Virus record (IMG/VR): IMGVR_UViG_3300021400_005359 | Direction: 5' to 3' (one strand) | DNA from: an uncultured virus (IMG/VR IMGVR_UViG_3300021400_005359) | Taxonomy: Duplodnaviria; Heunggongvirae; Uroviricota; Caudoviricetes | Length of the DNA: 64,000 bases | Shown: positions 7,651 through 62,300 of the stretch, piece by piece | Layout of the letters: every line of letters starts with the position of its first letter | Position numbering within the stretch: the stretch's first letter is position 1 | Notes under the pieces: generated by a model | What the model saw: the letters and a program-made list of their open reading frames with translations, nothing else | Databases searched by the model: none | Told to the model about the DNA's origin: nothing | Translations under genes and position numbers: made by a program

Positions 7651-7652
7651 CG

Positions 7653-9436: not shown

Positions 9437-9447
9437 AAATAAACTCC

Positions 9448-40724: not shown

Positions 40725-41327
40725 TCAGCCAGTTACAAAGTTAACAATAGTATTAACAAGCATAGGAGCATAAAGAACAGCTGCATAAAGAATAGCTGAA
40801 GCAATCATACCTGTTAAACCTTTGCCTGCCATATTTCCCTTTGTAAGACTTCCGATAAGACAAATAGCACAAGATACAATGAAAATAACAATTGCGAAAG
40901 GTTGTGCAAAGATTTGAAGAATAGAAATAATTTCATTTCCTTTCTTTAAAATCCAAGAAACCATCTGGTCTGTACTAACAGTAGGAACTACTTCAGAGTA
41001 GTTAGAGTAAATCTGAACTGTCTTGTCTAAAGAATTAACCTTATTAGGGTCAGAAGCAGTAAGTCTATTTACTAACTCATAATCTTCTCCGAAGACTACA
41101 TAGTCTTGAACTCCAGTAGTTGTATTGTCAATAGCTGAAAGATTCTGTGTCCCAGATTGAGGAATAGTTTCAGCCTGAACTTCAATTGTTCCATCAAGTC
41201 CTGTGTTAACATCAGCTTGAACTTCCTGTGTATCTACAGGCCAACCAATATCAGATGCAAATACAGTTGTTGGGAAAATAAGCATTGCTGATACAAGTAA
41301 TGCAGATATCATCTTAGCGATTTTCAT
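40725..41327 (-). CDS. Secreted/membrane protein with C-terminal TrbC/VirB2-like two-helix hairpin
   Basis: Signal peptide ending VFA|S; about 100-aa polar region; then ISILQIFAQPFAIVIFIVSCAICLIG...GKGLTGMIASAILYAAVLYAPMLVN. Located near the T4SS genes. Confidence 0.5.
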   Translation of the reverse strand: MKIAKMISALLVSAMLIFPTTVFASDIGWPVDTQEVQADVNTGLDGTIEVQAETIPQSGTQNLSAIDNTTTGVQDYVVFGEDYELVNRLTASDPNKVNSLDKTVQIYSNYSEVVPTVSTDQMVSWILKKGNEIISILQIFAQPFAIVIFIVSCAICLIGSLTKGNMAGKGLTGMIASAILYAAVLYAPMLVNTIVNFVTG

Positions 41328-41452: not shown

Positions 41453-42874
41453 TTAATCTCCGAGATTAAGTCCTTTAAATACATCAAAAGGATATAAATC
41501 AAGCTCAAAAATTCTTCCAGTTTTATCAAGCTGAATAAAATAATCTGTTCCACCAATTCCTACAACAAGCCAATAATCAAGAGAAGTACCCTTAATTACA
41601 ACTTCTTGACCTTCGTGAAGAATAGTGTCTGAAACATCTTTTGAATTCATTGAATTATATAAAACAATTTGTTCAGAAGAATAAACAATCTGTTCTTCTG
41701 TATTTTGATAATAAGTAGGTTTTACTTCATAAAGATTGTGATTTTTGTCAAGCTTATATTTCTTTTCAAGGCTCCAATTTTGAGTTGTATCTTTATCAAT
41801 ACAAGGAATAATAAGTTCTCCGTTTCCATCTCCTAAAGATATTTCATTTACAGTATCTTTAGTCTCAATTGAAAAACCTCTCCAAAATCCACTAAATACA
41901 AGCTTAATATTATTCCCATCATAGTAATAAATTTCATAATGTTTAGAATCTTCGCTATCTTCATCTGATTTAGATAAAAGAATTTCAGTGTAAGAGTCAT
42001 TTTTATCTATATCAATAAAGTTTATAACAGGAAGAGTTCCATAATCTTTTAAAGCATAAACAGCATCGTTTATTTTTAAAGCATATCCGCACTTATTGTA
42101 ATCATTATAATTAGAATAAATTTTTAAAGTTATAGAATCAACTTTTCCATCGCCATTTAAATCTTTTGAAGTTTCAACACTTGCTGCTTCATCTTCAGAA
42201 GAAAAAGTAGGAACATCAACAGTAGAATATCTAGAAAAATCTATCCCTTGTCCACTACAAGCAACAGATATAAATTCTGAAAGTTCTATTTTATAATGAT
42301 TAACATCTGTTGTAAGCTGTGCATAGTTAAACATCTTATCGAATTCAAAATACTTTATATCATCTTCTGTAGTAATCTTAGGATTCAAAGAAAGCTCATT
42401 TTTTAAAGTATTATCTTCAACTAAATAATGATTTTTAGTTTCTTTATTATATAAGAACCATTTTTTAGCATAGAAAAGGCAATTATCATAACTTGTAGAA
42501 AGTTCTTTATCGCTTCTAACAGGAAGGTCTTCTTTTCTAGCTATCAAAGCTTCTATAAGGTAATATTCATCAGTTAAATGAACATAACTCTTTCTCAAAA
42601 TCTCCATTGAACCAAGAGAAATTTTAACATCTTCTCCATCAATATTTACAGAAGCATCACCATAATTAATTTCTTCTTTTTTACTTTCAACAACTTCTGT
42701 TTCAGGAGCTTCAAAAATTGAAACATTAATATCTTCTGTATTAACTTCTATATTTGAAATAACTGAATCATCTTCTTTTAAATTCTTTGAGATTATAAAA
42801 ACAAGCAAAGAAGCAAAAGCTAAAATAACTACTAAGAATATAGCTATAATCAAATTCTTTTTATTTTTATTCAT
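41453..42874 (-). CDS. Membrane-anchored extracytoplasmic protein with DxxGDG Ca-binding-like loop and possible C-terminal SH3b-like domain
   Basis: N-terminal TM; KDLNGDGKVDSI and FIDIDKND..TEI; C-terminal LHEGQEVVIKG...WLVV. Confidence 0.6.
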   Translation of the reverse strand: MNKNKKNLIIAIFLVVILAFASLLVFIISKNLKEDDSVISNIEVNTEDINVSIFEAPETEVVESKKEEINYGDASVNIDGEDVKISLGSMEILRKSYVHLTDEYYLIEALIARKEDLPVRSDKELSTSYDNCLFYAKKWFLYNKETKNHYLVEDNTLKNELSLNPKITTEDDIKYFEFDKMFNYAQLTTDVNHYKIELSEFISVACSGQGIDFSRYSTVDVPTFSSEDEAASVETSKDLNGDGKVDSITLKIYSNYNDYNKCGYALKINDAVYALKDYGTLPVINFIDIDKNDSYTEILLSKSDEDSEDSKHYEIYYYDGNNIKLVFSGFWRGFSIETKDTVNEISLGDGNGELIIPCIDKDTTQNWSLEKKYKLDKNHNLYEVKPTYYQNTEEQIVYSSEQIVLYNSMNSKDVSDTILHEGQEVVIKGTSLDYWLVVGIGGTDYFIQLDKTGRIFELDLYPFDVFKGLNLGD

Positions 42875-42974
42875 AAAAAACTCCTTTATTTTAAAATTCT
42901 CTATATATTATACAGCAAAAATAATTAAAAACAAAAAAAGATGAGTAGGAGAAAACCTACCCATCTCTTTTTTA

Positions 42975-45900
42975 TTAGAAGTATGAAGCATCATCCTTAA
43001 TGGCTTTTTTATCTTTAAGCATTTCATCACTCATATCATATTCATCCATATCATATTCACTGTCTGACTTAGTATCGCCTCTTACTGAATTTATCTTAGC
43101 CTGAGCTTCAGCGACATCTTCAGCATCGAATTGACCTTTAGCCATTTCAGCTTCAAGTATTCCTGAATCTTCCATATACTCAACAAGGTATGGATTATTC
43201 TTAAGTGTTGTCTTAGTAAATATTGTAGGACAAAGAAGAGGACTTACAGCACTTAATGATGATTGATTGTAATCAAGGTCATCTCTAAAGAATCTATATA
43301 CACTAAATCCTGCAAGATATCCAGTGCTTCCATCTTTAATATTTACACAACTTCCACCACCTCTATATCCACCTGAGTGAATATATGCTCTTTGACTTCC
43401 GTTTACATTTGAATTAGCAAAGCTTAAAACTTCTGTACCTGAACGTCTGATGATTTGATTTCCAAGAATTCTTAGAGTTGAATCATCAAACAATCCACCG
43501 TAATTAGTTGTATAATCACCAATCCAAACAATTGTATGTCCACTAGAAACAAGTAAGTCTCCAGTCTTAAGTTGTCCTTGAGCAAGAAGTGCAGCAGCAT
43601 TTCCGACATACAAATCTCCAAAGTTCGCATTATATGTTGAACAAGTTGAAACAGTTAAGTTATAACCCATAGCAGCATACATTTGAGCTCCAAAGCTTGA
43701 ACAGTCAAATGCCCATTTGTTACCAGCAGCAAATGTTCCTTCACCATAGGAATTAGCTCCCCAAGGTGTTGCATAAGGACCACCACCAAGGTTTTCAGCG
43801 TGAGATGTTCTAGAATAAACAACCCCATTCCAAGCATCTTTTGCTCTACCTTGAGAATAATGAGCTCCAAGATAAGTCATTGCATTAAGTATAAGGGAAT
43901 CTCCCATCTCTCCAGTAAATTCATTGCTTCCTTTTTGAACTGAAGGCTCTTCTCTAAAGAAGTCTAAGTATGTATAAGAGTAATCAGCAGCTTCAGTGTT
44001 GTTGTTTCTGTAGTTAGCAGTCATCTTAATAAGATTATCAACATCGTCAGCATTTACATTTCCAGAAAGAAGTTCAACACCACTATTTTCATATTTAAGA
44101 TACTCTTCTTCCCAAATTTCTTCACTGTAATCTCTCTTATTGCCTGTAGACATAACACCTGAGAATAAATCTCCGTTTGCAAATTCTTCAGCATAGAAAG
44201 AAAGAATCTTTGTACAGTATCTAGGACATCCATAACCAAAGTTTTCACCCATAGGAATCTTAGTTCTATATTCAGCTTCAGAGACTGAAGCAGCTCTAGC
44301 AGCCGCAGAACCAGCCATTTGATGAGTTCTCTTATATCCTTGATACTCTAAACCATTTTCATAGTTATATAAGTATTGTAAATCTCCTTCAGGAGTTAAA
44401 GGATATTCATCTGAAAACTCTAATCTAGCATCTAATGTAACAGGAAGATTATGAGTCTTAATAGCAGTTAAAGGATGCATATCATAACTAGCATTTTGTA
44501 ATGTTCCAGCATAATTCATAACAATGTAATCGATTGAAGCCATAGGGTCAAAAGCTTGCGAATAATTAAATGTAATCGAAACCTTTTGACCATTTTTATC
44601 AGTAGCACTTGCTTTCAAATCTCCGTTAACTATTGAATGTTGAGCAAGTCCACGTCCAGGTCCTCCACCATATTGTTTGATATCAGGATTACCTCCAGAT
44701 TCAACCATTATAAGTGCCATAACAAGTGCAGGGTCAAGAGGTTTTTCAGGAGTACTGAAATTACTACAAACCTGAGTTATGTAATCAATCATTGTTGCAG
44801 AATATCTTCTACCATCAACAAGTGATGTACCTGAAATTTGTTTATTTGCAGCAGCTCTTGTAGCGTCAGCATTTGCTCCAATATCCCAAGCATCATCCAA
44901 CATAATACCTTCAAGTCCACTTGCAGAACCACCAGAATTCATTGAATAAGTAACAAGAAGTTTTCTATAATCCTGATTTGTTATATAAGAAAATGCTTCT
45001 TGAAGTCTATTAATTCCATATATTTCGTGCAAATCTCCACCTTGAACATCTCTCCAATTAATATTATCTCTATCAGCATCATTTAAAAGTTCAAAAGCAG
45101 CTTGGATATCTTCATCAGTAGGTCTATACCACAAACCGTGTTCAGCATTTCTCATTCTGTTTGTTGCATTATCTTCTGTAACGACTATCAAAGCTTTTAC
45201 AAACTTATCAGAATAGAATGATGCATAAACAGCTTTGAGAAGGTCTCCAAGAGATTTAGTTGATTTATAAAGTCTTACAGAAGCATACTGAATAGCATCT
45301 TCCATAACAAGTCTTCCATCAGTAATAGTATCAGCTTTAGCATCTTCAGCAAGACCAGGGTCTGAATGATAAATATCAAAAGCAATTTCATAAGGTTTCA
45401 TAGTTTCGCTAGAAGCAGGAGGGAATACCCAAGTACTCTTATCCTTATCTTCAGGTGGAATATCATCTTCAACCTTATAGTCTTTTGCTCTAGAAACTAA
45501 AGCAGAAAATCCAGAGGAATTTAAATTAACCATATCAGATGAATAACTTGATTTTAATGAAGCATCATCTGCAAGAACAGAATCAACAGCATCAAATACA
45601 TATTCTCCATTTGGAATATTTTCTTCAATATATTCCTTAATTATTCTATTTGCAGTTTCAACAGCAGCATTTAAAGTCTCAGCTGTCCAAGGAGAAGGAT
45701 TATAACCACCAGTTCCATCATCATTATTACCTTTAACAGGTGTTACTGGTAAGAAATAAAGTTTAGCGTTTGGAGCAGCTTTAGTAGCAGCTTTTATAAG
45801 TCTTCTAATATATACAGTATCAATTCCTGTATCAGGAGTTCCTGTAGACTCTAAATCTTTTGCTGAAAGTGAAATTATTATCTTTTCAGTATCTTCAGGA

Positions 45901-48900
45901 ATACTTCCAAGTTGTCCATATAAATCTTGAGCACTAGAACCAGTAATAATTCCACCAAGACCATTACAAGCAGTTGCTCCAGAATGGTCTGAAATCATAT
46001 AAGCTCCAGTTACAATATCTTCTGGACCGCTATGAGAAGTAGAAGAATCAAATTCTTCTGGAACATCAGTAGACATATCCTTATCTTTAAAGTTATCTAT
46101 AGCCATAATACCTACGATAGGAATCAAGTTTCCATCTTTAGTAGTTATCTGCAAATGACTAAAGAAATTAGGGTCGTCCGCTTTTCCTCTACTTGCTCCA
46201 ATAAGCTCTCTTGTCTTAGAAGAAATTTCTTCTGTTAAATCATTACTATAATCAGCTATTCCTTCATAATCCATAAGAGCTGCAGCATCTTCAGGTAAGT
46301 ATTTAAGTTTTGTTTCAGAAATTCCTTGAAGAAGTTGAGCAATTACTGAATTAGGAATATTAAATGCTTGACAAATATCATTCCAATAAGGTTTATTAGC
46401 TTCTGCTGTAAATAAATTAGTATAAGCAATTGTTTGTACAGGATACAAAGTATATTGTGTAAGAAGGTCAGCATATCCTGCAGTTCCTCTAATTTCAAGG
46501 TCTGAATCAGTTATTATATTGTAAGGAACATAAGATTCAAAGTTTTCAAAATAAGAATAAATATAATTTGAAAGTCTATCCATTTCTTCAGTATATCTTT
46601 CAATCTTTTCAACTGGACTACTTTCTGTTATAGTCATCTTATTTTTCCAAGAGTCATAAGTTAAACCTTCAAAATATTTAACTTGTTCTTCAGGGATAAT
46701 CTTCTTTTTAGTTCCACCATAATACCTATATAAAGGATAAAGAGTTGGTTCATCCCTTCTATCAGTAAGTCTAGGAACAAGTACGAAACCAGTTATTGCA
46801 AAATCTTCAGTCTCTCTAGGATGTTCAACATGTCCATCGTCAAAAGCATAATGAGCAGAATTCACAATGTTTCTAACAGTTTCTCCATAAGTTTGATTTA
46901 AAAATGCTACAAATTTATCAGCTTTGTCAGATGTTCCAGTTGAAGAATTTGTATCTCCATAAAGAACTTCTATAGGATTGATTGCAGCAACCTTATTATC
47001 AATATAAACATCATTAAATTTATCTTGGAATACTTCTTCTTCTCTAGAAGTATCTTCATCAGGAGTAAAGGATTTAGATTCTTGGCTTTCCCATAGCTTA
47101 AATCCCATAGGTGCATCCTTAGGCTTTATGTTAATTAATGCATCTCTTATTCCTGTATCAGCTATTGAATTTTGAATAAATCTAAAGAAAAATCCAGTTT
47201 GAGAATTAGCTGTTCCATCAACTCTATGTAAATGAACCCCATTTTTATAATTTCCAGAACTATCTACGGCAGAATCTGTTGAAATATTAATATTCCCTTC
47301 AATTGCTGCTCCGTTGTTCTTTAAATAAGCTCCATAAAGAAGTTCTTTCATAGAATCTTTACCATATCCAATTTCTTTTTCGTTAAGATTTTGGAAATTA
47401 TCAAAAATCTTAACTTGAGGTCTCCACAAATTTTCTAGTGAAGTCTTATAATCTCCAGCCCCATTATAATTGGAAATAGTTATTTCGTTATCATAAATAC
47501 CTTTACCTTTAATATCCTCTAATATCTGTTCAGCTCTTACATTAACTAATGAACCATAATAAGTACTAGAAACCATAGAATTGCTAATTTTCCAATCTTT
47601 AACAAAAGTAAAATCATCAATATGTTCTATATCCGCTTTAACATTATTATCTTGATTAAAATCAAGATTTAAAGAGCTAACATAACTATAATATCTACCG
47701 TCCTTAACTTTGTTTGCAATTTCATCTGAACATTTCAAAGAATAAGTATATATGTTTGCATAACATTTAGCTTTTCCTGAACCATCATCTGGAGTTATCC
47801 AATTACCTCCTTCATATACTTCAAAGTCGAAATCAAATCCTCCAAAAATAGATTCTCCTTCTTCTTTATATCCCATAAGTTTAATATATCTATTAAATAA
47901 AGAAGGAAGTATTTTATTTGTCATTTCAGTTTTATAAGTTGATAAATCTAAACCTGAATCAACTCCATCGCTAGAAATATGGATTCCGACATAATCCATA
48001 TCTACTTTAGCACATAGAGAAAATTCTTGAGAAGTAATTCTAAAACCAGTACAAAGTTGTAATAAAGCATCTGCTATACTTGCTGCCAAATTATTTATAG
48101 CTTCTTTTGCCATATCTAATAAACTAGGACTAGGAGCTTCATAAGGCCAATCATAATTTGCAAATCCATAGGAATGTGCTTCAGCCATAGCAGATAACCA
48201 ACCCATTGCATGAGCTTTATAAAAAGTTACTGCACATTCAGCAGCTTGGTCTTCACTTATAGGTACTTGATTTCCATTACCATCATCAACTGTAAATGTT
48301 TGACATTGTCCTAATAAATCTTCGTAAGGATGTCCTTCTGAAAATTCTCTATAAACACCCATAGCTCCAGTTCCTTCGTATTTCAAACAAGGAGCAAGAT
48401 AAGGGACAGATAAAATATCATATATAGCAGAATTTACTTCGTCACTATCATAAGCATTAGCTAAACGATTCCAAGCTTCTTTAATTTGGTTAGCCTCGTC
48501 ATCACTCATTGGAGTATTTATTACTGTTCCATTGGAATCTGTATGCTCAGTATTAGCATTAGCTATAAAAGATTCTGCACTATATCCACCCATACTAGCT
48601 ATAGCATCATTAGCCATACCATTTACAATTGCTTCATCCATTTGATATTCAATCTTATTGCTTAATAAATCAAAAGTTTCATTATAAGTATCATCAGAAA
48701 AATCACTATGAACACCATCAAAAGTATGTTTAAATGCATCTGGTAAATTAGTATCCATAAATACAAATCCAGAGAAAATCATATTTGTATATGATTCAAT
48801 TTCTTTTCTTATTTGAGAATCAGATTCCCAATGATTACTATCATCTCCATTATATGATTTCAATTCATCAACCATACTAGCTGGAACTGCATATAAGAAA

Positions 48901-51900
48901 GCATTATCATAAAATTGGTCATACCAAGAATTGTTAGCAAAGTCAGATTTCAATTGATTTACAAACTTTGCAAGAGCGGTTTTAACTGCATTTATAACAT
49001 CTAAAACAAAGTTTCCGCTACTTTCCTGACCAGAGACAATATTTTCATTATGAGTTTTAATATAACTTGAAACAGTAGCTCCATCAACAGTAGGTTGGAC
49101 ATTCATCCACATAAACGATACATCTATAATCTGTTCTGTTAAAAGTTTTATATCCCAACTATCAAGGAATACATATCTATCCATAGCATAAGCACTTAAA
49201 ATTCCTTTAGTTGAGTCTGGGTCTAAAGAATCTCCTGTAGGAAGAAGAGTATCTTTATAGGTATACATAAATCTTCCAGTAAATGTAGCAACTTCATCTA
49301 TTACAAATACTTTTTCGACATCAGAATCAGTAATAAAATCAAATCTATTTATACCACTTCTAAAGTTTTTAGAACTATAAGTATCTAAAATGTATTCATA
49401 ATATTGTTTTTCACTTAAATCATAACCATTAGCATCAGTGTATTTAATTTCATTACCATGTTTATCAAATCTCTGAGCATTAATACCAAACCACCATGAA
49501 GGTTGAGTAGTTTCTATTCTGCCATCACCTGTATAGTATCCAGTTATCTGAGTTGCAGAATCCCCAGAACCTTGAGACATAGAAACTGTTGACATTGCAT
49601 TCCCAAAAGTATAGTTATCAGTTTTATTATTTGTTTTAGAATATGTTTGCCAAGGACTTCTTCCATAATAACCAGTAACAGCATTTCCATCATCTTTTCC
49701 AGCATTATATTCATATTGGCTTTCATAAGGATTTATAGTATTTGGCCAATCACCACTTCCATAAGGATTTGCAAGATTAGCTTGAGTAAATTCTTTTTCA
49801 GGTCCAACAGAATATCCAGTTGTTACAGTTGACAAACCTCTTAAAATAGCATCAATATTGCTTGAAGGTAAGCTAACATCTGCAGTTTTAAGATATGAAA
49901 CTTCTTTCTTTTTAATTCCATCTGGAACTAAAACATTTTTTCTAAGAATTAATGTTCTAATTCTTTCAAGAAGACTCATCTCATAAACTTTTTCAAGAGG
50001 CCAATCAGAGCCATTAGTATTATCAAGAGAAAGTGTTTTAACCCAGTTTCTGTAATATCTCTTAGGAATTAAAAGCTGAATAATTCTGTTTGGCTCATCA
50101 GTAATTCCCTCTTTTTCATAAGGAAGTTTAATTTCAGGCATATAATAATAGAATTTTGAGTCATCATTTGTAATTCTATAAATTTGATTTGCTTCAAAGT
50201 CATAGTCATCAGCACCAATTGGATTGCCTTCTTTGTTTAATAATCTAAAGGTTGCTGTTCCCCCAACTAATGCATCATTCATAACATCAACATTAAAACC
50301 TATATTATCAACAGCAGTATCTTTATCTAAATTGTAAAAATCATCTGTTAATAAATTAAAAGTTTTATCTGCAATTTTTAGTTCACCATGTTTTTCTTCA
50401 TCCCAAAGAACTTGGTCATATTCATTTGTTACTTCAAAAATTTTGGCATCTATAGAATCAACCAAATCTGTAAATAAATGTTTCTTATTGTTTTGTTCAA
50501 AAAGTTCAACTATGTAATCAGAAGCATCTTCTCTCATTTCTTTTGGATAATATCCGTTTCCAATGATGGAAACAGCTTTCGCATAATCTGCATTATCTCC
50601 AGATATAGCTTTACCAGCCATTTCACCTTTTAAAGAAACAGATGATGATGTTTTATTAAACCAGTCATCATGACCTTCAGAGAAGGAATATGTAGAATAT
50701 ACATCTGCATATGCAGAATATAAACCTTCACCTATTTCTTTTCTTAAATAAACTTCATCATACCAAGCTCCTGAATAAAATTCAACCGTAATACTATCTA
50801 CGTAATTAAGTATTGATGCAAGTCCGTAATCTCTTACAGACCTAACTTCCAATGGAAGTTCATTCTTTCTATCAACACCATTAGAATTATATACACCAGA
50901 ATGATTAGCCTGAGGAGATGATGTAATATAGTATTCATATTGATAATGATTGTGTTCCTCAGCATTATAAGGGAAAGTAAGAGTATGTTCACCCCAATTT
51001 TCTCCTATAGCAGTATATTCAGTATCATTCCACCAAGCAGAAACTTTTTCCTTAAATTCAGTCCAAGCACCTTTAATAGCTTCAGCTTCATTTGTAAAAG
51101 TAAATGAAGTTTCAGTATCTTCATCTGGTAAAGAACCAGGACTTGTAAGATAAGAATAAGTAATTGCTTCTTCATATAAAGAATCATTTAAATAGAAAGT
51201 ACTAATCAAAGAACCTTCTCCAGCTCTATTCTTTCCAGTAATATCCATACCTATAACATATTGAGTTTCTGATGCAGTAGTAGGATTATAGCTAGGAATA
51301 TAAGAATACATAGAACTTCCAGAACTATCGTCTCCAGATTCTCCTTCTTCAGCACTCTTTCTAATAGTTCCAAGATTTAAATATGCTGTATGCATTTTTC
51401 CTGTTATCTTCTCAAGGATATCTGCAAGGTCTTCTTGATTAACTTCTTTTCCCATAATTTGTAAATAACCATGTTTGATATTCTTACCTATTGCAGAAAT
51501 AGTATTTACAAAAGATAAAGGATTAAACAAATTATCTAAAGCGAATCCATTTACTTCATCCCAAAATACTTCATGTCTTGATTTTCCAGTTACATAAGGA
51601 GAAATAAGTCCACCTTTAGTTTCTATTCCATTAATTAATTGATTTTCTAAACTACTAACATCTATTTCTTTTGTATACCAAGGACGGTCAGTATTATATT
51701 CATCAGTTATATTGTCAAGTATTGCCGATTCAAGGAATGATTTATTATGCTTTAATTCTTCATAAAGATAAAAATATTTTTGAAAATATTCATATCCATC
51801 CATTTTGTCATTATCTGTTTTAAAATAATTATTAACAGAATAATTCCAAACCCATACATCATTTTCTTGTTGGTCTCTAACAAGTTCTCTCTCATATCCA

Positions 51901-54176
51901 TATAGAGACAAAGATAAAACTTCTTCAGGGTATTCCATTATAATGTTAAACATCGCTTCAGTATTTTCCCCATAATATTCGTCACCAACAGATTCTTTCT
52001 CTTCATAATCTTCACCATAATTTTCCAAACTATGTTCTTCTGGAGTGAAAGCATCTATAACTGAACTTGCAATACTTTTCTTAACTCCATTTATTCTGTT
52101 GTTTAAAGAATCTATAATATTTCTATCTGCATATAAAGTTAAATCATCTTGATGAGATAATATATAATCTCCCCAACCATCAACATATTCTTGTCTATTT
52201 CTATAAGCTTCTGTAACTGTTTTAATCTTATAATACTTGTAATTTATAAGATTTTGAGAACTTACAGCAATCTCATCATCTTCTCCTGTAAGCTGAACAG
52301 TTTGAACGTGTCTTTTTGGATATTTATTAAATGCTTTTCTAATTCTTATTTCATCTTTTTCTCTAGGTTGAAAAGTCTTGGTTCCATCTTCTTCTGTAAC
52401 ATAAGCAGGCTTATCTGTAGGAAGTCTATAACCATCAGGAATGGTAATTACAAGCCATTCTCCATCTTCCGTAACCTTTTTAAAGTTAGAAGAAAAAGTA
52501 GTATAAGGATTAGTATTTACAGATGTACTAAATGTGTCAGAAATAACTCCAGTATAAACATCTCCAGTAAATACATAATCATCACCATCTCCTGCAAGTC
52601 CATAACTGTTTACAGTTACCTTATCTTCCACATAAAGAGCATCATAGTCATCTGTTGTTTGATTTGTTAACCAAGCCCATAAATCACTTATAGCATCTTT
52701 TATACTTCCAAGCCAACTATCTAATACAGTTTCATCTACGTGAGTAGAATCTAATGCAATTGACCAGTCACTAGCTTTTCCACCAGTCATTTCATAGAAA
52801 AGTCTAACTTTTTCAATATCTCCAGTTTCATCATTTACAATTGTTAAGTATTCACTGTTATATTCATTATCAATAATCCCTTCATCAGTTATATCAAATA
52901 CTTGACCAGTGCCATCATTGTAAACTTGATAATAATCTTTTTTATAAACTGCGTAATCCCAAACAAATGGTGAAGGCCAAGAAATAATAAGCCCTTCTTC
53001 ATCATCACTTACAGTCCCAGAAACAGAAGAACCATAGTAATTTGAAGCATAATAGGATTCATTTATATTTCTTAAAACTTTTTCTTTATCAAGACCAACA
53101 TCGTCTGGAGTTACTCTCTTAGTTGTATAAGTGTAATCTTTCCAAACATATCCCACTTTACCATCTTCAACAGTCTTAAATAAATCAATTCTGTTAAAGT
53201 CAACTGTATAAGCAAGAGGCTTTGTAAACATTTCAGGATAGTGTAACTGATTGTTCTTATAGTTACCCATATCTTGAACATATGTATTTGCCTGTCTTAA
53301 GAATTGTTCAGAAAGAATAAAGTTGGTTTCTTTATCAAACAAATCTCTAAAATATCCTTGAACAGCATCTCTATTACCATTTGAAGTATCTAAAGTATTT
53401 GCCTGAATAACATTTGTCATTGTATTAAAGTTTGCATCGTGAGCAGTTTCTCTGTCATCCATAGTATAGAAACCAGTAAAACCAGCTTGTGCATCTTTAG
53501 CAGCTTCTTTATAGCTCTTACCATATTTTGTTTGAGCTTCTTCCAAATTAGGAACTGCAAAACCTAAGAAATCACTAATTTCTGAATTCGCAAATCTTTG
53601 ATAATAAGAAGTTTCTGCAGTTCTAGAGTAAACATTTTCAAGCATTGTTTCTTTGTTTTTAACTTGTTGGAAAAGTTCAGTATCATAATAATCAGCCTTA
53701 TTAAATCCATAACTAAAAGAAAATAGATTTGTAAGGCTTGGCCAAAGGTTAACAAAGAAAACAATTGCGGCAATTACAACAATAGCAATCACACCATAAG
53801 GCCACATAACAGCGGCTAAAGCCTGAATTAGCTTTGCAAAAGCTTTTATAATTACTTTTGCCAGTTTCATCAAAAGCTTAGCAATTTTCTTTTTTATTTC
53901 ACCTTTGATTTTCTCTTGAATCTGTTTAGCTACATTATCTGCAAAATGTTCAGCTTCTTGAACGATTTGCTTTGCATTTGTTCCAACTTTGGCAGAATTG
54001 GTATAAAGAATGTAAAGAAACTTAATTAATCCCCAAAAGCTAGGATTTTCTTTTAATTCATTTGTAGCTTTTTTGATATTACTTATCGCATCTTTCTGCT
54101 CTTGAACTTTTTGGTTCATACTAGAGAAAACTCTCTTAGAAGCAGATTTTAATAGCGAAATAATAGGATTTGCCAT
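42975..54176 (-). CDS. Giant (3733-aa) membrane-anchored cell-wall hydrolase: degenerate SGNH + SLT lytic transglycosylase + NlpC/P60 (VirB1/CwlT-like)
   Basis: TM WPYGVIAIVVIAAIVFFVNLW. SLT LDPALVMALIMVESGGNP...GRGLAQ...YCTKILSFY (about 44200-44750). NlpC/P60 AMTYLGAHYSQG...FDCSSF...GDLLVSSGHTIVWIG...YIHS (about 43370-43890). Confidence 0.85.
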   Translation of the reverse strand: MANPIISLLKSASKRVFSSMNQKVQEQKDAISNIKKATNELKENPSFWGLIKFLYILYTNSAKVGTNAKQIVQEAEHFADNVAKQIQEKIKGEIKKKIAKLLMKLAKVIIKAFAKLIQALAAVMWPYGVIAIVVIAAIVFFVNLWPSLTNLFSFSYGFNKADYYDTELFQQVKNKETMLENVYSRTAETSYYQRFANSEISDFLGFAVPNLEEAQTKYGKSYKEAAKDAQAGFTGFYTMDDRETAHDANFNTMTNVIQANTLDTSNGNRDAVQGYFRDLFDKETNFILSEQFLRQANTYVQDMGNYKNNQLHYPEMFTKPLAYTVDFNRIDLFKTVEDGKVGYVWKDYTYTTKRVTPDDVGLDKEKVLRNINESYYASNYYGSSVSGTVSDDEEGLIISWPSPFVWDYAVYKKDYYQVYNDGTGQVFDITDEGIIDNEYNSEYLTIVNDETGDIEKVRLFYEMTGGKASDWSIALDSTHVDETVLDSWLGSIKDAISDLWAWLTNQTTDDYDALYVEDKVTVNSYGLAGDGDDYVFTGDVYTGVISDTFSTSVNTNPYTTFSSNFKKVTEDGEWLVITIPDGYRLPTDKPAYVTEEDGTKTFQPREKDEIRIRKAFNKYPKRHVQTVQLTGEDDEIAVSSQNLINYKYYKIKTVTEAYRNRQEYVDGWGDYILSHQDDLTLYADRNIIDSLNNRINGVKKSIASSVIDAFTPEEHSLENYGEDYEEKESVGDEYYGENTEAMFNIIMEYPEEVLSLSLYGYERELVRDQQENDVWVWNYSVNNYFKTDNDKMDGYEYFQKYFYLYEELKHNKSFLESAILDNITDEYNTDRPWYTKEIDVSSLENQLINGIETKGGLISPYVTGKSRHEVFWDEVNGFALDNLFNPLSFVNTISAIGKNIKHGYLQIMGKEVNQEDLADILEKITGKMHTAYLNLGTIRKSAEEGESGDDSSGSSMYSYIPSYNPTTASETQYVIGMDITGKNRAGEGSLISTFYLNDSLYEEAITYSYLTSPGSLPDEDTETSFTFTNEAEAIKGAWTEFKEKVSAWWNDTEYTAIGENWGEHTLTFPYNAEEHNHYQYEYYITSSPQANHSGVYNSNGVDRKNELPLEVRSVRDYGLASILNYVDSITVEFYSGAWYDEVYLRKEIGEGLYSAYADVYSTYSFSEGHDDWFNKTSSSVSLKGEMAGKAISGDNADYAKAVSIIGNGYYPKEMREDASDYIVELFEQNNKKHLFTDLVDSIDAKIFEVTNEYDQVLWDEEKHGELKIADKTFNLLTDDFYNLDKDTAVDNIGFNVDVMNDALVGGTATFRLLNKEGNPIGADDYDFEANQIYRITNDDSKFYYYMPEIKLPYEKEGITDEPNRIIQLLIPKRYYRNWVKTLSLDNTNGSDWPLEKVYEMSLLERIRTLILRKNVLVPDGIKKKEVSYLKTADVSLPSSNIDAILRGLSTVTTGYSVGPEKEFTQANLANPYGSGDWPNTINPYESQYEYNAGKDDGNAVTGYYGRSPWQTYSKTNNKTDNYTFGNAMSTVSMSQGSGDSATQITGYYTGDGRIETTQPSWWFGINAQRFDKHGNEIKYTDANGYDLSEKQYYEYILDTYSSKNFRSGINRFDFITDSDVEKVFVIDEVATFTGRFMYTYKDTLLPTGDSLDPDSTKGILSAYAMDRYVFLDSWDIKLLTEQIIDVSFMWMNVQPTVDGATVSSYIKTHNENIVSGQESSGNFVLDVINAVKTALAKFVNQLKSDFANNSWYDQFYDNAFLYAVPASMVDELKSYNGDDSNHWESDSQIRKEIESYTNMIFSGFVFMDTNLPDAFKHTFDGVHSDFSDDTYNETFDLLSNKIEYQMDEAIVNGMANDAIASMGGYSAESFIANANTEHTDSNGTVINTPMSDDEANQIKEAWNRLANAYDSDEVNSAIYDILSVPYLAPCLKYEGTGAMGVYREFSEGHPYEDLLGQCQTFTVDDGNGNQVPISEDQAAECAVTFYKAHAMGWLSAMAEAHSYGFANYDWPYEAPSPSLLDMAKEAINNLAASIADALLQLCTGFRITSQEFSLCAKVDMDYVGIHISSDGVDSGLDLSTYKTEMTNKILPSLFNRYIKLMGYKEEGESIFGGFDFDFEVYEGGNWITPDDGSGKAKCYANIYTYSLKCSDEIANKVKDGRYYSYVSSLNLDFNQDNNVKADIEHIDDFTFVKDWKISNSMVSSTYYGSLVNVRAEQILEDIKGKGIYDNEITISNYNGAGDYKTSLENLWRPQVKIFDNFQNLNEKEIGYGKDSMKELLYGAYLKNNGAAIEGNINISTDSAVDSSGNYKNGVHLHRVDGTANSQTGFFFRFIQNSIADTGIRDALINIKPKDAPMGFKLWESQESKSFTPDEDTSREEEVFQDKFNDVYIDNKVAAINPIEVLYGDTNSSTGTSDKADKFVAFLNQTYGETVRNIVNSAHYAFDDGHVEHPRETEDFAITGFVLVPRLTDRRDEPTLYPLYRYYGGTKKKIIPEEQVKYFEGLTYDSWKNKMTITESSPVEKIERYTEEMDRLSNYIYSYFENFESYVPYNIITDSDLEIRGTAGYADLLTQYTLYPVQTIAYTNLFTAEANKPYWNDICQAFNIPNSVIAQLLQGISETKLKYLPEDAAALMDYEGIADYSNDLTEEISSKTRELIGASRGKADDPNFFSHLQITTKDGNLIPIVGIMAIDNFKDKDMSTDVPEEFDSSTSHSGPEDIVTGAYMISDHSGATACNGLGGIITGSSAQDLYGQLGSIPEDTEKIIISLSAKDLESTGTPDTGIDTVYIRRLIKAATKAAPNAKLYFLPVTPVKGNNDDGTGGYNPSPWTAETLNAAVETANRIIKEYIEENIPNGEYVFDAVDSVLADDASLKSSYSSDMVNLNSSGFSALVSRAKDYKVEDDIPPEDKDKSTWVFPPASSETMKPYEIAFDIYHSDPGLAEDAKADTITDGRLVMEDAIQYASVRLYKSTKSLGDLLKAVYASFYSDKFVKALIVVTEDNATNRMRNAEHGLWYRPTDEDIQAAFELLNDADRDNINWRDVQGGDLHEIYGINRLQEAFSYITNQDYRKLLVTYSMNSGGSASGLEGIMLDDAWDIGANADATRAAANKQISGTSLVDGRRYSATMIDYITQVCSNFSTPEKPLDPALVMALIMVESGGNPDIKQYGGGPGRGLAQHSIVNGDLKASATDKNGQKVSITFNYSQAFDPMASIDYIVMNYAGTLQNASYDMHPLTAIKTHNLPVTLDARLEFSDEYPLTPEGDLQYLYNYENGLEYQGYKRTHQMAGSAAARAASVSEAEYRTKIPMGENFGYGCPRYCTKILSFYAEEFANGDLFSGVMSTGNKRDYSEEIWEEEYLKYENSGVELLSGNVNADDVDNLIKMTANYRNNNTEAADYSYTYLDFFREEPSVQKGSNEFTGEMGDSLILNAMTYLGAHYSQGRAKDAWNGVVYSRTSHAENLGGGPYATPWGANSYGEGTFAAGNKWAFDCSSFGAQMYAAMGYNLTVSTCSTYNANFGDLYVGNAAALLAQGQLKTGDLLVSSGHTIVWIGDYTTNYGGLFDDSTLRILGNQIIRRSGTEVLSFANSNVNGSQRAYIHSGGYRGGGSCVNIKDGSTGYLAGFSVYRFFRDDLDYNQSSLSAVSPLLCPTIFTKTTLKNNPYLVEYMEDSGILEAEMAKGQFDAEDVAEAQAKINSVRGDTKSDSEYDMDEYDMSDEMLKDKKAIKDDASYF

Positions 54177-54391
54177 ATAGTTTTTATGCGAAAGAAAAAA
54201 TCTTTCTTATCTCCTTTCAAAGACTAATAGTAATAAAATATCTATCTATTTATTATATTCTTATTTAAACTTTCAATAATTTAAATAAAGACATTTTTAC
54301 TAAGTTTATTTTAGAATATACATATAAAAACCCATTTTTATAAAAAAATAAAGAAGAAGAGCTAAGCTCTTCTTCTCTATTTTAATTTTTA

Positions 54392-57300
54392 TTATCTTTC
54401 AATGCCACCAACTTCTGTTTGAACAGGTTTCTTTTGTGTCGAATTATCAATTCCTTTATTTTCTTTAGCCTTTAATTGTTCTTGAAGCTGTCTTATAAGT
54501 TCATCTTTTGCATCAAGTTTCTTTTGAAGGTCACTAACATTTTTATTAGCTTCCTTAGTTTCAGCCTCTTGAATTTTTAAAGCATCTCTTAATTCTTTAA
54601 CTTCAACATCTTTTTTTGCTTTTCTTGCCTCTTCAAGCTTTTTAGCACTGTCTATATCTTCCTTTGAAACAATTTCTTTTATAGCATCTTTGTATTCATC
54701 TCTTAAATCATCTAAATTAACAAGTTTTGCCATATCAGAGTTATTAATACTATCTTTTAATGACTCAAGAATTTCATCAATTGAATGGTCTGAAGTTTTT
54801 CTATCAAAATAGTCATTAACAGCGTAAACATCTAACTCATTATTTATAATAGCTCTTATTAAATCAACTTGTTTTTCATATGTACTATTACTGCTTATTT
54901 GATTTATTGTTAAAGGCATTTCATCAACTTTAAATTCATAAGGATTAGCATTTTTTGTAATATCAATTACAGGTTTTAATAATTTATTTTTCTTGTAACC
55001 AATTACATTTTCTAAATTATCAACAACGTAATCAACATTATAAATATTAGAAGAATCAATTCCAATGTTATGAACATCAGACAAATCTAAATCTTTAAAA
55101 TCATCTAAAAGTAAAATAGATGAACTGTCTCCATAACTTTTTAGAACTTGTTTTAAAGCATTTGCACTTTCGTCACTTAATTTAATAGAAACTTCTCCAT
55201 TTATTTTATCAAAAATTTCTTTTTCACTTAAATCTTTATTATCTATTAAATTAGAAATTTCAGAACAAATCTTTTTAGCTTCTAACCCTTTAAAATCTTC
55301 TTTCTTTAAAAATGCTTCTCTCTTTTCAAAGTTTTCTTGATTAATATAATCAATTAATTGTCCAAGTTGCTTAGATGTTAAATTGTAAGAAGTATTTTCT
55401 CCAATTTCAATCTTATAAGAAATTCCATTTTCTTGTAAAGATTTAAATAATTCTTCTGAAGCTTTTGTTTCTAATGGAACAAGATGAAAATCTTTGTCAA
55501 TACACATATTAACAGCTCCATTTACATTTGAAATATTATATACCTTGTTTTCTTCTAAAGAACTATCTAAAAGTCTTTCTGATTCATCATAGAAAGCATT
55601 TACATTTTTAGCTATTTTTAATATATTTTCTTTATTTCCAACTTCTTTAAAAGTAGACTTTAATGCAGAATATAAAACAGTATTACTAGATTCACCAATC
55701 ATAAAGTCTTTAGCTTTTTCTTTATCATTAAGATAAGCATCAACGAAAGAATTAAAATCATCTTTTGAAAGTTCTTTTAAAGCAGAAGTTAATGTTAAAA
55801 ATCTCTTATTAGATAAATCCTTGTCTTCAAATATTTCATTTGTAGTATTTTTTAACTGTTTAATTGTAGGAGCAATTTTATCATATACATCTTTTGTATA
55901 TTCTTCATTTTCCTTAAGGTCATTTTCATTTTGCATAGAGAATTCAAGGTCTTTTTCTAATTTTTCTACAATTTGAGAATATCTATCATTAACAAACGTA
56001 GTATAATCTCCTATAGTCATTAAAATTTTTTCATTTTCTCTTCTATTCTTATCCAAATCTTCTATGCTTTCTATTAATTCTTCAGTAGATATATCTTTGT
56101 TATCAGAATTTGAAAGATGGAAAAACTTTCCAATTTTGTTTACGAAACCAGAATTTTTTTCATTTTTATTTTCACTTTCATACTCTTTTTCAACTCTTTC
56201 AACTAAATCTTTCTCAAATAAAGCAATTTCGTTTTTAATATCAGTTAATCTTTCATTATGTTCATTTTTAATACCTTCAAGTTCTCTATATTCTTTAGTG
56301 TTTTGTTTTTCTTCATCTTCTAAATTTCTTAAATTATTATTAATTTTTTCAATTAAATCTTCTTCTTTATCCCTAACTTTGAAATAAGATTTAAGAACAT
56401 CTTCTTCTTTTACCTTCTCATATTCAGAAATATTTTCAATATTAGAGAAAATATCCTTCTTATTTTTTAATTCTTCAAATTCAAGTTGTTTATCAATATA
56501 ATCTTTATTGTATTCAGAAATAGATTTTCTTAACTCTTGAAGTTTATCATCTATAGATTTAGTATCTGCATTAGAATCTTTTTCTAATTTTTCTGCTCTC
56601 TTTTCTTCAAGTTCATCTTTTTCTTTTTCTTTTTGAGATATTTTATCGTCAAGCTCCTTTAATTCTTTATCTAATTTATCAATTTGTTTGTCAAATGTTT
56701 TTGAAAATTCTTCAATACTATTTTCTTGTAATCTTTCTAAGTCTTGAAGAGCCTTATCTAATGAATTAAAGGTTTTTTCAGGTTTAATATAAAGAGCTTT
56801 AGTATTTTTATCTCTAGCAACTTCATATCCTAAGAATTTTTCATCAATAACAACAATCTTTTCAGCTAAAGCTTCTTTAAGGTCTTCATTATTTCTTATT
56901 TTCTCAATTACTTCTTGATTTAAAGGATATTCTAAATTCAAAGGAATATCTTTCCCACTATCAACACAATCATAGATTGACTTTAAAGATTGTCTAACTT
57001 TTAAAACTTTCAAAACATCGATATTTTTACCATCTTCAGTAAAGAAAATTTTATTCATTAAATCTTTTCTGTCTTCATATTTATTTTCTGGGTCAAAAAG
57101 TTGTTTTCCTAAACTTTTGCCATCCAAAAATCTAGAAGTATAATTATCATCAACAATATTATAAATTAATTCTTCTAATTGCTTTTTAGAATCTTTATCT
57201 CTAACTCTGTGATTAACATCATCACTAATAGATTTCATAATTCCTCTAGCAGCAATAATATGTTCATTATGAGTAACTACGTCATTATTATTAGCTTTTA

Positions 57301-59343: not shown

Positions 59344-62300
59344 TTAAGCATTAGCTTTCATAGAACCAATCTGATTATTATCTTTATCATAAATCTTTTG
59401 ATTTCTCAATGACTCAATATTTTTCTTATTTGCTGCATCTCGTCCTCTTTTCTTTGTTTCCATCATAGTTCTTTCAGCAGATTCGTTATTTGTATTATAA
59501 CCACCTTGAATTGTAGTTCTTCCTGCACCAGCTGATTGTTTACTATAAGGGTCAATTTCCATATAAGACTTAGCTCCTTCAAATTGATTAGCAAAATCCT
59601 CTGCATTATAACTAACATTATCATCTTTTCTAGAATCATAGTTATCTATATCTTTATAACTAATATTTCCATTTCCATCATCCTGACGAACGAAACGATG
59701 ATATTCATTAGAATTTCTATCTTTTGCCATTACAGTGTTTACTTTATCTGCTAAGTTTTGGTCTTTAACTTCATAACAATTTTTAAATTGTGAAGAAATT
59801 TCTCCTCCAACAGCTCTATCATCATATGTCATAACCTCATTTTTACCATTAGAGAAATCATTTACATAAGCAGCTTTTCCTGTTGCACGAACATATTTGC
59901 TATGGTCATCTCCTGCCTTAACTGCCTTTGCAGCATCTGAAGATAAAGAACTCTTACTGTTACTTAAGTAAGATTTAGCTTGTTTCAAGTCTTGTTTTGC
60001 TTGTTTTATATCAGCTTTACTTGCCTTATCTGCTTTTAATTGTTTAAGATTATCTTTCGCACTGCTAACAGCTTGTTCCTGAGCTCTGTAGTTGGCAACA
60101 TCTTTCATCTCTTCAGAACTCAAATTATTCATAGCTTTTGCTTCATCCTTTCCAGTTTTTGCTTCCATTCTCTCATTACGATTATCTATAGCTTGTCCAA
60201 TATCAGCAGCAGCAGTTCCTATATCATCAGTAACACTATTACCATAATTTTCAGAAGCTTTAACACTACCAGCTACATCTCCAAGATTTGCTCTTGTAGC
60301 AGCATTTCCCATAATACCACCAGTACCTTTATAAGCACTAATTGCTTTAGAAGCACCGCTTAATGCGTGACCAGCAACTCTAGCTTTACCACTTCCATTT
60401 TCTTTAAGAGCTTTACCAGCAGTAGATAAGTTTCCGACAGCAGCATCTTTACCGACACTACCAGCTCCGCCAGAACCACTTTTTCCACCACCTCCAACAC
60501 CATTAGTTGCTCCAATATCTCTATTTACATTAAGGTCTGAAATAGCAGGATTATCTCCACCATATTTCTTAGTAAGTGCTCCAGCAGCAATATTTGCTCC
60601 ACCAGCAGCAACACCTAAAGCCTTATTCTCAATAGCAGCAAATGCAGTTTGAGCACCAGCTTTTCCTTGAGATACTGCGAAAGAACCAGCATTACCAAAG
60701 ATAAGCTGTCTAAAGCTATCAATAATAGGAAGAAGTGAGAAATAAATTACAAGTTTAGTAAATAAACCATTTGTATTTCCCATTACGTCAAAGAGGAAAG
60801 CAAATGAAAATGCGTGAACAGATTGCATAAATATATTTGCTGAAATCTCTTTGAGCCAGTTATCAAAAAGTCCTTTTTGTTTAGGACCAGAGAAAGCCAT
60901 TGAAACTATAAATAATGGAGCAGATGCAGTAAGAAGTGCAATCATAATTGCTCTCATTATATAAATACCATTCATTACAACAGTAATACCTAAAAATCCT
61001 AAAAGGATTATAATTCCTGCGATTCCGAATGAGCTAGCTCCCATAAGACCACCATCAGCCTGTGTTTGAAACAAATCAACAATTAAATTGTTAAATGTTG
61101 CAAGTAGTCTAATAAATGGAATACAAAGAGCAAGTGAGAAACCTACAATAACAAACTTTTGTAATGTTTCCATAAGACTCATTCTAAGTGAAGGATTAAT
61201 TGTTGAAAAATTTATCTGAATCAAAACTTTTGCAACAGCAACAGCTATAATCATCCAAGCCACAATTTGGAATATTAAATGATATTTAAGTACTGTTCCC
61301 CACCAAGAAGCACTCATCATACCAGCTTCATAACTAGCATTACTACGAGCACCACCATTATAAATAAGTTGTTCAATAGTTTGTAATCCAAGGGCATTTG
61401 TTAAACCAGTATAAATACCGTAAAACATTTTGTAGATTGTTTCCTCTACCCAGCCCATTTCTCCAGCACCAGCACCCTCTGTAGTAACATCAGAATACTG
61501 TGCTTGAGCAGTTGCATAGTTAGCTATAGAAAAGATTGTAACCCATACAGCATCACCTTTTGATTCAGAATCAGGCATATTGTCATTTCTTACACCATAA
61601 GGGTCTTTACCATCTGCAAACTGTTTTCCAGTTGTAGGGTCTAAATATCCTTTAGGCATAGCCCAAATGACACCAGAATCAGCTTTTGAAGGACGACCTG
61701 CTTTATGGGCTTCATCTCCATCATTTTCATTAAATATATAAGCTAAAAGATTTCCTTCTTCATCAATTACTTTATATCCATCAGAAGAATATACAGCATT
61801 ACCAGGAACCCAGTCTCCATAATTATCAGCTCCGCAAAAAATTATTTTGTTCCCAAATAATTCGTGAACATTACCATCAGCAACGCCTTTTAATTCATCT
61901 ACAATTTGAATACTTGCAGCGACATAATCTACAGTTGGATTTACAGCAACAACAGTATTTTTAAAATCAACCATATCCTTAACTGAAGAAATCAAAGTAT
62001 TCATATTAGAGCCAAGAGTAGAAGAAATCTCTTGAGCTCTCTTCATATCTACATCAAAAGAATGTGAATCATTTTTATCTCTGTCATATGAAGGAAAACT
62101 ATAAACAAGTCCAGTATCTGTAAGATTTTTACCACCAAATTTATCATCACCTTCAGCTATTGCATCATTTAATTTAAATGGGTCAGCTCCTGCTACTAAT
62201 GCAGAATAAACTGTCCAGTCAAGATATTTTTGATTTCCCTTTGTTTTCTTTTTTAATTGTTTTGCTTCATAAGAATCTCCCATACTGTTAGAATCTTCGT

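Follow-up and report, generated by a model that had tools for sequence, protein, structure and literature searches.

CwlT of ICEBs1 and Orf14 of Tn916 are two-domain wall hydrolases, combining a glycan-cutting domain with NlpC/P60, that are encoded after VirB4-like and VirB6-like genes; CwlT is a protein of a few hundred residues and, going by the title of DeWitt and Grossman 2014, is reportedly needed for conjugation. PrgK of pCF10 and TraG of pIP501 are N-terminally anchored, multi-domain hydrolases of type IV secretion systems (T4SSs) in which one domain can be inactive. PrgK has a LytM/SLT/CHAP and TraG an SLT/CHAP architecture, with CHAP in place of NlpC/P60, and both are under ~900 amino acids (aa); their reported partners are VirB8-like channel proteins, and the titles of papers report an interaction of TraG with TraM and a muramidase of pCF10. 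VirB1 of Agrobacterium belongs to a diderm system; it is small and periplasmic, and within its T4SS it acts as a lytic transglycosylase of the SLT type. VirB1-like hydrolases and VirB8-like proteins have been put forward as the wall-spanning complex of Gram-positive T4SSs (PMC11753425). Here we describe P0001, a protein of 3,733 aa encoded on the minus strand at 42975..54176 of a 64-kb stretch of DNA catalogued as an uncultured virus (IMG/VR record IMGVR_UViG_3300021400_005359); the window, below, is this whole stretch. We consider it likely that P0001 is the peptidoglycan (PG) hydrolase subunit of a Gram-positive-type T4SS on an uncultured gut Bacillota megaplasmid, and that its long N-terminus is an expanded form of a ~450-aa module.

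Compared by description, P0001 shares with CwlT and Orf14 the pairing of a glycan-cutting domain with NlpC/P60 and the position after VirB4-like and VirB6-like genes, with PrgK and TraG the N-terminal anchor and the several domains of which one may be inactive, and with VirB1 the SLT-type transglycosylase in the service of a T4SS. However, CwlT has none of the conserved blocks A-G set out below and is set apart by description, and P0001 is 'VirB1-like', as an earlier note made from the letters of this DNA called it, by role only. Giant secreted proteins are also encoded by the Hodors, uncultured Bacillota gut megaplasmids of >300 kb that encode VirB4, VirB6 and VirD4; these proteins, of 7,309-7,704 aa and ~2,642 aa, have S-layer and MBG domains and sortase anchoring, and the passages of the preprint that deal with them do not describe them as hydrolases (PMC12934698). 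The G+C content given there for Hodors is 44.6-47.1%, whereas that of the window is ~30%, and their giants differ from P0001 by description (PMC12934698). Our literature search turned up no account of a T4SS hydrolase of this kind and size; the supplements of the Hodor preprint may list related proteins. Multi-domain T4SS wall hydrolases were already known, and what is new is the size, the placement of insertions within a conserved module rather than the addition of repeats, and a family of ~17 giants.

The N-terminal module and its insertions

In all four cultured megaplasmids inspected, a PG hydrolase gene follows the VirB4 and VirB6-like genes, directly or past one or two small open reading frames (ORFs). 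The proteins, from BTB_502p of Bacillus thuringiensis Bt407 (WP_001001494.1, 1,125 aa), a plasmid of C. difficile BI1 (WP_014466334.1, 1,066 aa), pJFP838A (WP_061429576.1, 1,148 aa) and an Aneurinibacillus plasmid (WP_272443404.1, 886 aa), thus span 886-1,148 aa, and the architecture is SLT-M23-NlpC/P60 in three and SLT-M23 in one. They have in common with P0001 this position in the locus, blocks A, C, (D) and E in order, an SLT domain with ESGG, the linker block G and, in 3/4, NlpC/P60. In contrast, the stretches inserted between its blocks make P0001 3.3-4.2 times longer; it is without M23, and has a degenerate SGNH domain and a block F that are absent from the four by Pfam.

A profile built from the four cultured hydrolases matches P0001 in four collinear pieces (full-sequence E 7.6e-11). 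Profile positions 13-239 align with P0001 residues 71-356 (YPE.F.KP.AY; independent E value, i-E, 5.3e-6), positions 230-289 with residues 1095-1158 (DYG.AS.L.Y; i-E 4.4e-4), positions 379-434 with residues 2513-2569 (Y..Y.EN..SYVP; i-E 3.1e-4) and positions 488-581 with residues 3147-3244 (DP.L..A....ES.G). The same profile matches 20/20 family proteins with the order unchanged, and 84 control sequences (reversed, shuffled or unrelated) gave no block match at i-E < 0.05, their best full-sequence E being 0.025. Profile-profile comparison (hhalign) related the giants to the cultured proteins with a probability of 99.4% (E 1.9e-21), and to the Bt407 protein alone with 97.1% (E 4.7e-11) over the SLT region. 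A profile of seven close homologs found no match among the ORFs of loci L004-L006, although the reverse search with the cultured-protein profile did match, and tblastn with either half of P0001 (residues 1-2700 and 2650-3733) found no match in plasmids, cultured hydrolases included.

Seven blocks, all on the minus strand, make up the conserved part of P0001 outside its enzyme domains. Block A (residues 82-527; post-membrane part, residues 153-527, at 52596..53720) carries a YPExFTKP motif and is conserved in nine distant giants. Alignment with the giants further delimits block B (residues 592-678, the SQNLINYKYYK region; 52143..52403) and block D (residues 1602-1677, IDEVxTFxGxFMYTYKD; 49146..49373), and in P0007, P0008, P0011, P0014 and P0023 block D matches positions ~266-330 of the cultured profile. 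Between these two lies block C (residues 1093-1158; 50703..50900), whose VRDYGLASILNY motif is invariant in 15/15 aligned proteins. Block E (residues 2469-2703; 46068..46772) is the most conserved, 'signature' domain (NFEsYVPYN...RG...AQLLQG), and is followed by block F (residues 2949-3090; 44907..45332), a conserved stretch ahead of SLT, and by block G (residues 3312-3412; 43941..44243), which in relatives is the linker between SLT and M23; both are again delimited by alignment with the giants. Block E is the best-scoring stretch in most of 16 library matches and is predicted to be mostly helical; its model (predicted local distance difference test score, pLDDT, 51) matched no fold, with a best Z of 5.1 to a helical hairpin, which should not be taken as a sign that the fold is new. 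A search of the ESM Atlas with residues 2400-2720 returned clusters of viral hypothetical and portal proteins at 0.94; because recognition was low (1690), with ~150 shared features, we rejected the result as evidence; residues 150-520 gave no usable match there.

The N-terminal part is at least as well conserved as the enzyme domains, with an identity to distant homologs of 62% over residues 2501-2600 and 48% over residues 1601-1700 and 601-700. The stretches between blocks are the least conserved parts, with 7-21% identity to distant homologs in 100-residue windows. Residues 679-1092, 1159-1601 and 1678-2468 are large insertions of ~400-800 aa each, and ahead of SLT both the SGNH domain and block F have been inserted as well. 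Since blocks A to E are collinear, the N-terminal 2,700 aa correspond to the ~450-aa N-terminal module of the cultured orthologs, split by insertions. At the level of sequence, this comparison demonstrates that the long N-terminus is that module expanded by non-repetitive, fast-evolving insertions. The earlier note had taken these ~2,700 aa for unknown sequence, which does not hold for the whole, given the conserved blocks that stand in order between the insertions of ~400-800 aa.

The expansion is a property of a family. With residues 1590-2700 as query, HMMER searched exhaustively through 1.84 billion representatives and recovered 16 proteins, including nine distant giants of 1,681-3,099 aa that carry blocks A-G in the same order as the close clade, and the family comprises ~17 full-length giants with interchangeable enzyme sets. 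Among 11 relatives scanned with Pfam, M23 was found in 9, SLT in 7, GDSL in 4 and NlpC/P60 in 3, and an enzyme domain stands directly after block A in P0016, P0021 and P0017. In P0017 (2,711 aa) the domain after block A is Peptidase_M15 (D-Ala-D-Ala dipeptidase-like) and a Peptidase_C39_2 domain lies at the C-terminus, the two replacing SLT/M23. With P0017 as the example, the giant scaffold appears to take quite different wall enzymes. No relatives of the giants were found in one-genome-per-species GTDB contigs or in IMG/VR, and in PLSDB matches were found only to the C-terminal enzyme part of the relative P0012.

Wall enzymes, membrane anchor and proposed mechanism

Three domains of wall-enzyme families lie at the C-terminal end of P0001, on the minus strand: a degenerate SGNH-fold domain (residues 2723-2904; 45465..46010), an SLT lytic-transglycosylase-like domain (residues ~3145-3280; 44337..44744) and an NlpC/P60 endopeptidase domain (residues 3422-3630; 43287..43913). 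The first and last are identified by Pfam, fold and alignment, and SLT by Pfam, hhalign and the cultured profile. The Pfam matches are Lipase_GDSL_2 (PF13472) at residues 2739-2889 (E 1.8e-4, 22.5 bits against a gathering cut-off of 32.9), SLT (PF01464) at residues 3145-3215 (E 7e-3, 16.4 bits against 21.3) and NLPC_P60 (PF00877) at residues 3483-3552 (E 5e-3, 17.1 bits against 23). They recur when seven homologs are scanned singly (GDSL_2 in 7/7, NLPC_P60 in 6/7 and SLT in 5/7, the best SLT E being 1e-5), and the precomputed Pfam entry for homolog P0006 gives PF01464. Searched against PDB sequences, the seven-homolog profile found a sialate O-acetylesterase (E 1.5e-3) and the endopeptidase CwlO (E 0.013). 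Peptidase_M23, present in 4/4 cultured proteins and 9/11 distant relatives, had a match at E <= 0.1 in none of the seven clade members.

A structural model of residues 2640-3733, built from a five-sequence alignment, has a mean pLDDT of 42.3, with 52-83 in the SGNH and NlpC/P60 regions. Foldseek ranks SGNH esterases first for this model (6xpm, E 1.1e-4). In a Foldseek-independent search, residues 2723-2904 matched the sialic acid esterase 7pzg (Z 12.9, root-mean-square deviation 3.1 A, 160 residues aligned) and the C-terminal domain of the peptidoglycan O-acetyltransferase OatA (6vjp, Z 12.1), and residues 3422-3630 matched SagA, an NlpC/P60 protein (6b8c, Z 10.8, root-mean-square deviation 2.5 A, 104 aligned), and the NlpC/P60 domains of LytE and Acd24020 (Z 10.7 each).

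The residues expected for catalysis are kept in two of the three domains. The SLT domain of P0001 reads MVESGG, and the catalytic Glu is present in 6/7 homologs as aligned, P0008 being without it; in NlpC/P60, Cys3492 (in DCSSF), His3547 and His3600 are invariant in 7/7. In the SGNH domain of P0001, SDH stands for GDS, SAKD for GxND and D-M-V-N for DxxH (DGxH in relatives), which replaces the catalytic Ser with His, Asn with Lys and His with Asn. The earlier note had read all three domains in this way, giving VESGG as the SLT site, DCSS and GHT as the NlpC/P60 site and a probably inactive SGNH domain at about 45490-46010 with SDH, SAKD and DMVN, and the homologs, together with the fold matches of SGNH and NlpC/P60, agree with it. 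The nucleophile Ser and the His are absent from all five close-clade members aligned, whereas the distant relatives P0015, P0016, P0021 and P0019 keep canonical motifs ('FLGDSLT' in P0019); the SGNH domain of P0001 is therefore a degenerate copy of what is probably an active family domain, and SGNH is probably active elsewhere among the giants. In P0007 and P0008, the most distant close-clade members, the SLT region (P0001 ~3120-3290) is replaced or degenerate and the NlpC/P60 motifs are intact; P0008 lacks the Glu, and its sequence beyond that point is another one, containing Cys and Trp.

P0001 has a single hydrophobic region, residues 105-152 (53721..53864, minus strand), and no other 19-residue Kyte-Doolittle window exceeds 1.6. 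The N-terminal tail before it (residues 1-104; 53865..54176, minus) is K/R-rich: 19 K/R and 9 D/E precede the hydrophobic region, whereas 3 and 5, respectively, follow it. By the positive-inside rule, the short basic tail is probably cytoplasmic and ~3,580 residues are probably outside. This agrees with the proposal of the earlier note that P0001 is a membrane-anchored T4SS wall hydrolase, as does its place beside VirB4 and TrbL/VirB6-like genes, both in the window and in a locus whose P0001 homolog is 61% identical. The same note saw four amphipathic helices in the N-terminal region as reminiscent of tape-measure or membrane-inserting segments. The helices exist, at residues 488-503, 1034-1049, 1727-1742 and 2023-2038, but that meaning is not supported: their hydrophobic moments of 0.36-0.50 are ordinary (ranks 95 to 620 of 3,718 windows), they sit in indel-rich, poorly conserved stretches, one is absent in 4/7 homologs, P0001 has only the one hydrophobic region, and self-BLAST found no internal repeats in it. 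Strongly amphipathic windows number 13 in P0001 against 4.5 +/- 1.8 in shuffles, an excess that we do not read as evidence for membrane insertion.

Based on these observations, we propose a model of P0001 function. The single N-terminal segment would anchor the protein, with the short basic tail inside and the ectodomain outside. The conserved blocks would probably dock P0001 to the channel, and the insertions would place the hydrolases far from the donor membrane. Near this far end, going by what their families do, SLT would cut glycan strands and NlpC/P60 stem peptides, and the pair would make a local opening in the donor wall where the channel can assemble, which is the role of CwlT, PrgK, TraG and TcpG. 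O-acetyl groups on N-acetylmuramic acid block lytic transglycosylases, and the intact SGNH domains of distant relatives may remove them; with Ser, Asn and His gone, the SGNH domain of P0001 is left at most a binding role, which might be the binding of O-acetylated peptidoglycan that the earlier note put forward.

The locus and its probable megaplasmid lineage

The genes around P0001 belong to a T4SS and lie, on the minus strand, in the order VirB4, VirB6-like, 1,617 aa, P0001, 473 aa and 200 aa. The VirB4-like ATPase (62604..63998; NF045971, E 2e-61) is cut by the window end, its C-terminal 464 aa being read, and the TrbL/VirB6-like protein (59344..62496; PF04610, E 1.1e-5) is a polytopic membrane protein of 1,050 aa that has 32% identity (E 5e-33) to an 882-aa protein encoded after VirB4 on the C. 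difficile BI1 plasmid. Locus L003, which encodes the 61%-identical homolog, has the same order with ORFs of 471+, 1,047, 1,663, 3,687, 470 and 200 aa. The 1,617-aa protein (54392..59245) is K/E-rich and coiled-coil-looking, with no hydrophobic segment, and its L003 counterpart of 1,663 aa lies at 4799-9790; a gene of this type occupies that position in 0/4 cultured megaplasmid loci inspected. Downstream of P0001 are a 473-aa protein with one N-terminal hydrophobic segment (41453..42874; 470 aa in L003) and a 200-aa protein with N-terminal and C-terminal hydrophobic segments (40725..41327; 200 aa in L003).

Eleven plasmids (127-722 kb) from cultured Bacillota encode a VirB4 with 55-66% identity to the fragment in the window, and the next matches fall to ~35%. 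The 11 are from Aneurinibacillus (722 kb), Brevibacillus (414 kb), three Paenibacillus (360-510 kb), B. thuringiensis Bt407 (BTB_502p, 502 kb), Geobacillus (127 kb), Jeotgalibacillus (603 kb), two Clostridioides (301-306 kb) and C. perfringens (pJFP838A, 404 kb); the last is described in PMC4747519 as a unique megaplasmid with 70% hypothetical genes. FtsH (35412-37331, minus) and RecD2 (10801-13353, plus) have their best PLSDB matches in the same ~10 plasmids as VirB4. Since VirB4, the VirB6-like protein, FtsH and RecD2 share these best plasmid matches, the window appears to come from an uncultured, probably animal-gut member of a Bacillota megaplasmid lineage. The contigs that encode homologs P0004 and P0011 are 464,774 and 796,543 bases long. 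A Tad-pilus cluster and an annotated sigma factor occur in the same 3/4 cultured loci (not in BTB_502p), ClpX in 3/4 (not in the C. difficile plasmid) and PrgI in 4/4. We rejected pXO16 (TipB) as a close relative; the 14 PLSDB records that the Bt407 hydrolase finds include no other Bacillus.

The reading frame itself is well attested. It opens with ATG in the ORF listing, and at ~30% G+C an open frame of 11.2 kb excludes a chance origin. Contigs L001 and L002, from other metagenome records, encode residues 1-3733 at 100% identity, and a DNA run from a different study covers 30/30 ORF bins (identity 95-100%), its listing showing neither indels nor joints. The 3,733-aa length claimed by the earlier note thus holds, and its own worry, an assembly fusion of separate genes, is answered by an ORF that is full-length in three assemblies and free of joints in independent DNA. 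A collection of 5.8 billion protein clusters gave seven matches at E <= 0.001, one identical and six of 3,382-3,951 aa at 30-87% identity; the comparison of lengths that the note had suggested finds eight relatives at 3,382-4,081 aa, so that length is conserved over this range of identity. A search for shorter proteins matching residues 150-2700 recovered only two fragments of P0001 itself, from short contigs, so split forms are unsupported. Because the N-terminus is conserved in homologs, with the Met1 column invariant across the seven aligned, we accept the start codon; the sole Shine-Dalgarno-like GGAG in 54177-54240 (minus) lies ~34 nt 5' of this ATG, an unusual spacing. By consensus scan only, a terminator-like hairpin with a 17-bp stem and a T run follows the P0001 stop directly (42933..42972, minus), and a terminator-like palindrome with a T run lies between the 1,617-aa gene and P0001 (54352..54376, minus).

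By their run labels, the metagenomes with P0001 sequence are from animal gut (sheep, goat, bovine and unspecified gut): among the matches listed, 20 of 24 rows, from 14 studies, hold part of it, and coverage was mapped in four runs. Contigs from RNA libraries cover 22, 23 and 13 of 30 ORF bins (three runs, three studies), which, given possible DNA carry-over, is no proof of transcription. Elsewhere in the window, another giant ORF (25840-35145, minus; 3,101 aa), whose product has a hydrophobic segment at the N-terminus, has only a weak SLH match (E 0.0097) and may encode a surface protein of the same element. A DUF3268 zinc-finger protein (37486-37884, plus; E 2.8e-34) is encoded between FtsH and small membrane-protein genes. 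Positions 1-25000 encode the NAD-dependent ligase LigA, a 5'-3' exonuclease, RecD2, an NT5C-like nucleotidase, an ADP-ribosylglycohydrolase and SpoVG, among many ORFs without a Pfam or PHROG family. No tRNA was found in the 64 kb, a PHROGs search of window proteins matched 0/24, and NCBIfam and PHROGs gave nothing useful on P0001.

Competing explanations and significance

Several points weigh against the view of P0001 as the PG hydrolase of a conjugative T4SS with an expanded module. The Bt407 hydrolase matches 14 PLSDB records, each of them typed 'non-mobilizable', and, to our knowledge, no T4SS of this type has been shown to conjugate, so that conjugation by the P0001 system is itself something we infer. 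All three Pfam matches in P0001 fall under the gathering score, and the SLT region, like blocks F and G, is modelled at a pLDDT below 50. Taken singly, the blocks match the cultured profile weakly, at 8-15 bits and with i-E values between 3e-4 and 5e-6, and the printed hhalign alignment of the profile pair collapsed to 2 columns. The gene context is known for only two giants, in the window and L003, and the structural models cover residues 2640-3733 and block E, which leaves the insertions within 150-2440 outside them and extension unseparated from packing.

In a reach or bridge model, which takes up the stalk or channel-forming ruler of the earlier note, the ~2,000 inserted residues would make up a long stalk or conduit that carries the hydrolases through the donor wall and S-layer to the recipient wall, and that would also act as a mating bridge or as a ruler of envelope thickness; we think this doubtful. 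The anchor does lie at the N-terminus and the active enzymes at the far C-terminus, lengths vary among lineages with the blocks kept (886-1,148, 1,681-3,099 and 3,382-4,081 aa), the weak SLH match of the neighbouring 3,101-aa protein hints at a host that bears an S-layer, and how Gram-positive T4SSs gain access to the surface and contact recipients is stated as an open question in PMC11753425. However, the repeats usual in fibres and stalks are absent, a precise conduit would not be expected to tolerate the 7-21% identity to distant homologs in the stretches between blocks, and extension of the insertions has no support over globular packing. The more specific proposal, that they are an extracellular arm or conduit showing SLT and NlpC/P60 to the recipient wall, which would make the hydrolase the missing 'mating bridge' in Gram-positive conjugation that has no pilus, of a length tuned to the envelope of each host lineage, we regard as unlikely. 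The best-conserved parts of P0001 are the blocks held in common with hydrolases of ~1,000 aa, not the insertions, and this also makes it improbable that P0001 is a surface adhesin or aggregation factor whose ectodomain binds recipient cells or wall polymers, so stabilising mating pairs, and to which the hydrolases are secondary. Such a role would suit the great size of the ectodomain and its high content of Tyr, Asp, Asn, Ser and Thr, and giant surface proteins are conserved in other gut megaplasmids, as far as the account of the Hodors goes (PMC12934698), but neither P0001 nor six homologs matched an adhesin, Ig-like, S-layer or repeat family.

The shuffling of SLT, M23, NlpC/P60, SGNH, M15 and C39-like domains on a constant scaffold is reminiscent of polymorphic toxins, and T4SSs that kill bacteria with wall-degrading effectors exist, as a passage of PMC6536674 relates. 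We nevertheless give little credence to P0001 as a polymorphic, contact-dependent wall-degrading toxin, delivered to competitors or displayed against them, rather than a structural T4SS part: its position and homology tie it to the hydrolase that follows VirB4 and VirB6-like genes in 4/4 cultured megaplasmids, its N-terminal anchor looks uncleaved behind a 104-aa tail, and no immunity-like small gene was recognised beside it, the downstream genes encoding conserved membrane proteins. SLT, M23 or NlpC/P60 domains can be part of tape-measure proteins in Gram-positive phages; this, and the viral ESM Atlas clusters, a lead only in view of their low recognition, would speak for a phage tape-measure or tail-lysin protein. 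The data already contradict it, as they do an assembly fusion, and we hold both to be next to impossible. With respect to phage tail modules, which the earlier note named as a setting of homologs that would refute its reading, the neighbours are T4SS genes, 0/24 window proteins match PHROGs, P0001 has no IMG/VR relative, and tblastn with either half of it found no match in 50,697 phage records; as for a fusion, the full-length ORF in three assemblies, the length kept at 30-87% identity and the independent DNA run without indels or joints speak against it.

The reading of P0001 as an expanded T4SS wall hydrolase brings into view an unstudied megaplasmid lineage that spans Bacilli and Clostridia, with a backbone of VirB4, VirB6-like, FtsH, RecD2 and Tad pilus genes and gut contigs of up to 465 kb and 797 kb, and whose giants are missed by one-genome-per-species GTDB contigs and by IMG/VR. 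How a Gram-positive T4SS crosses the thick wall and touches a recipient without a pilus is an open question of the field (PMC11753425). Cultured relatives, on BTB_502p of Bt407 and pSC2 of P. polymyxa, make the core of the protein testable at the bench. Furthermore, one orthologous subunit of the wall complex here forms a natural length series, of ~0.9-1.1, 1.7-3.1 and 3.4-4.1 thousand residues with enzyme domains swapped, which separates the core, blocks A-G, from the lineage-specific parts.

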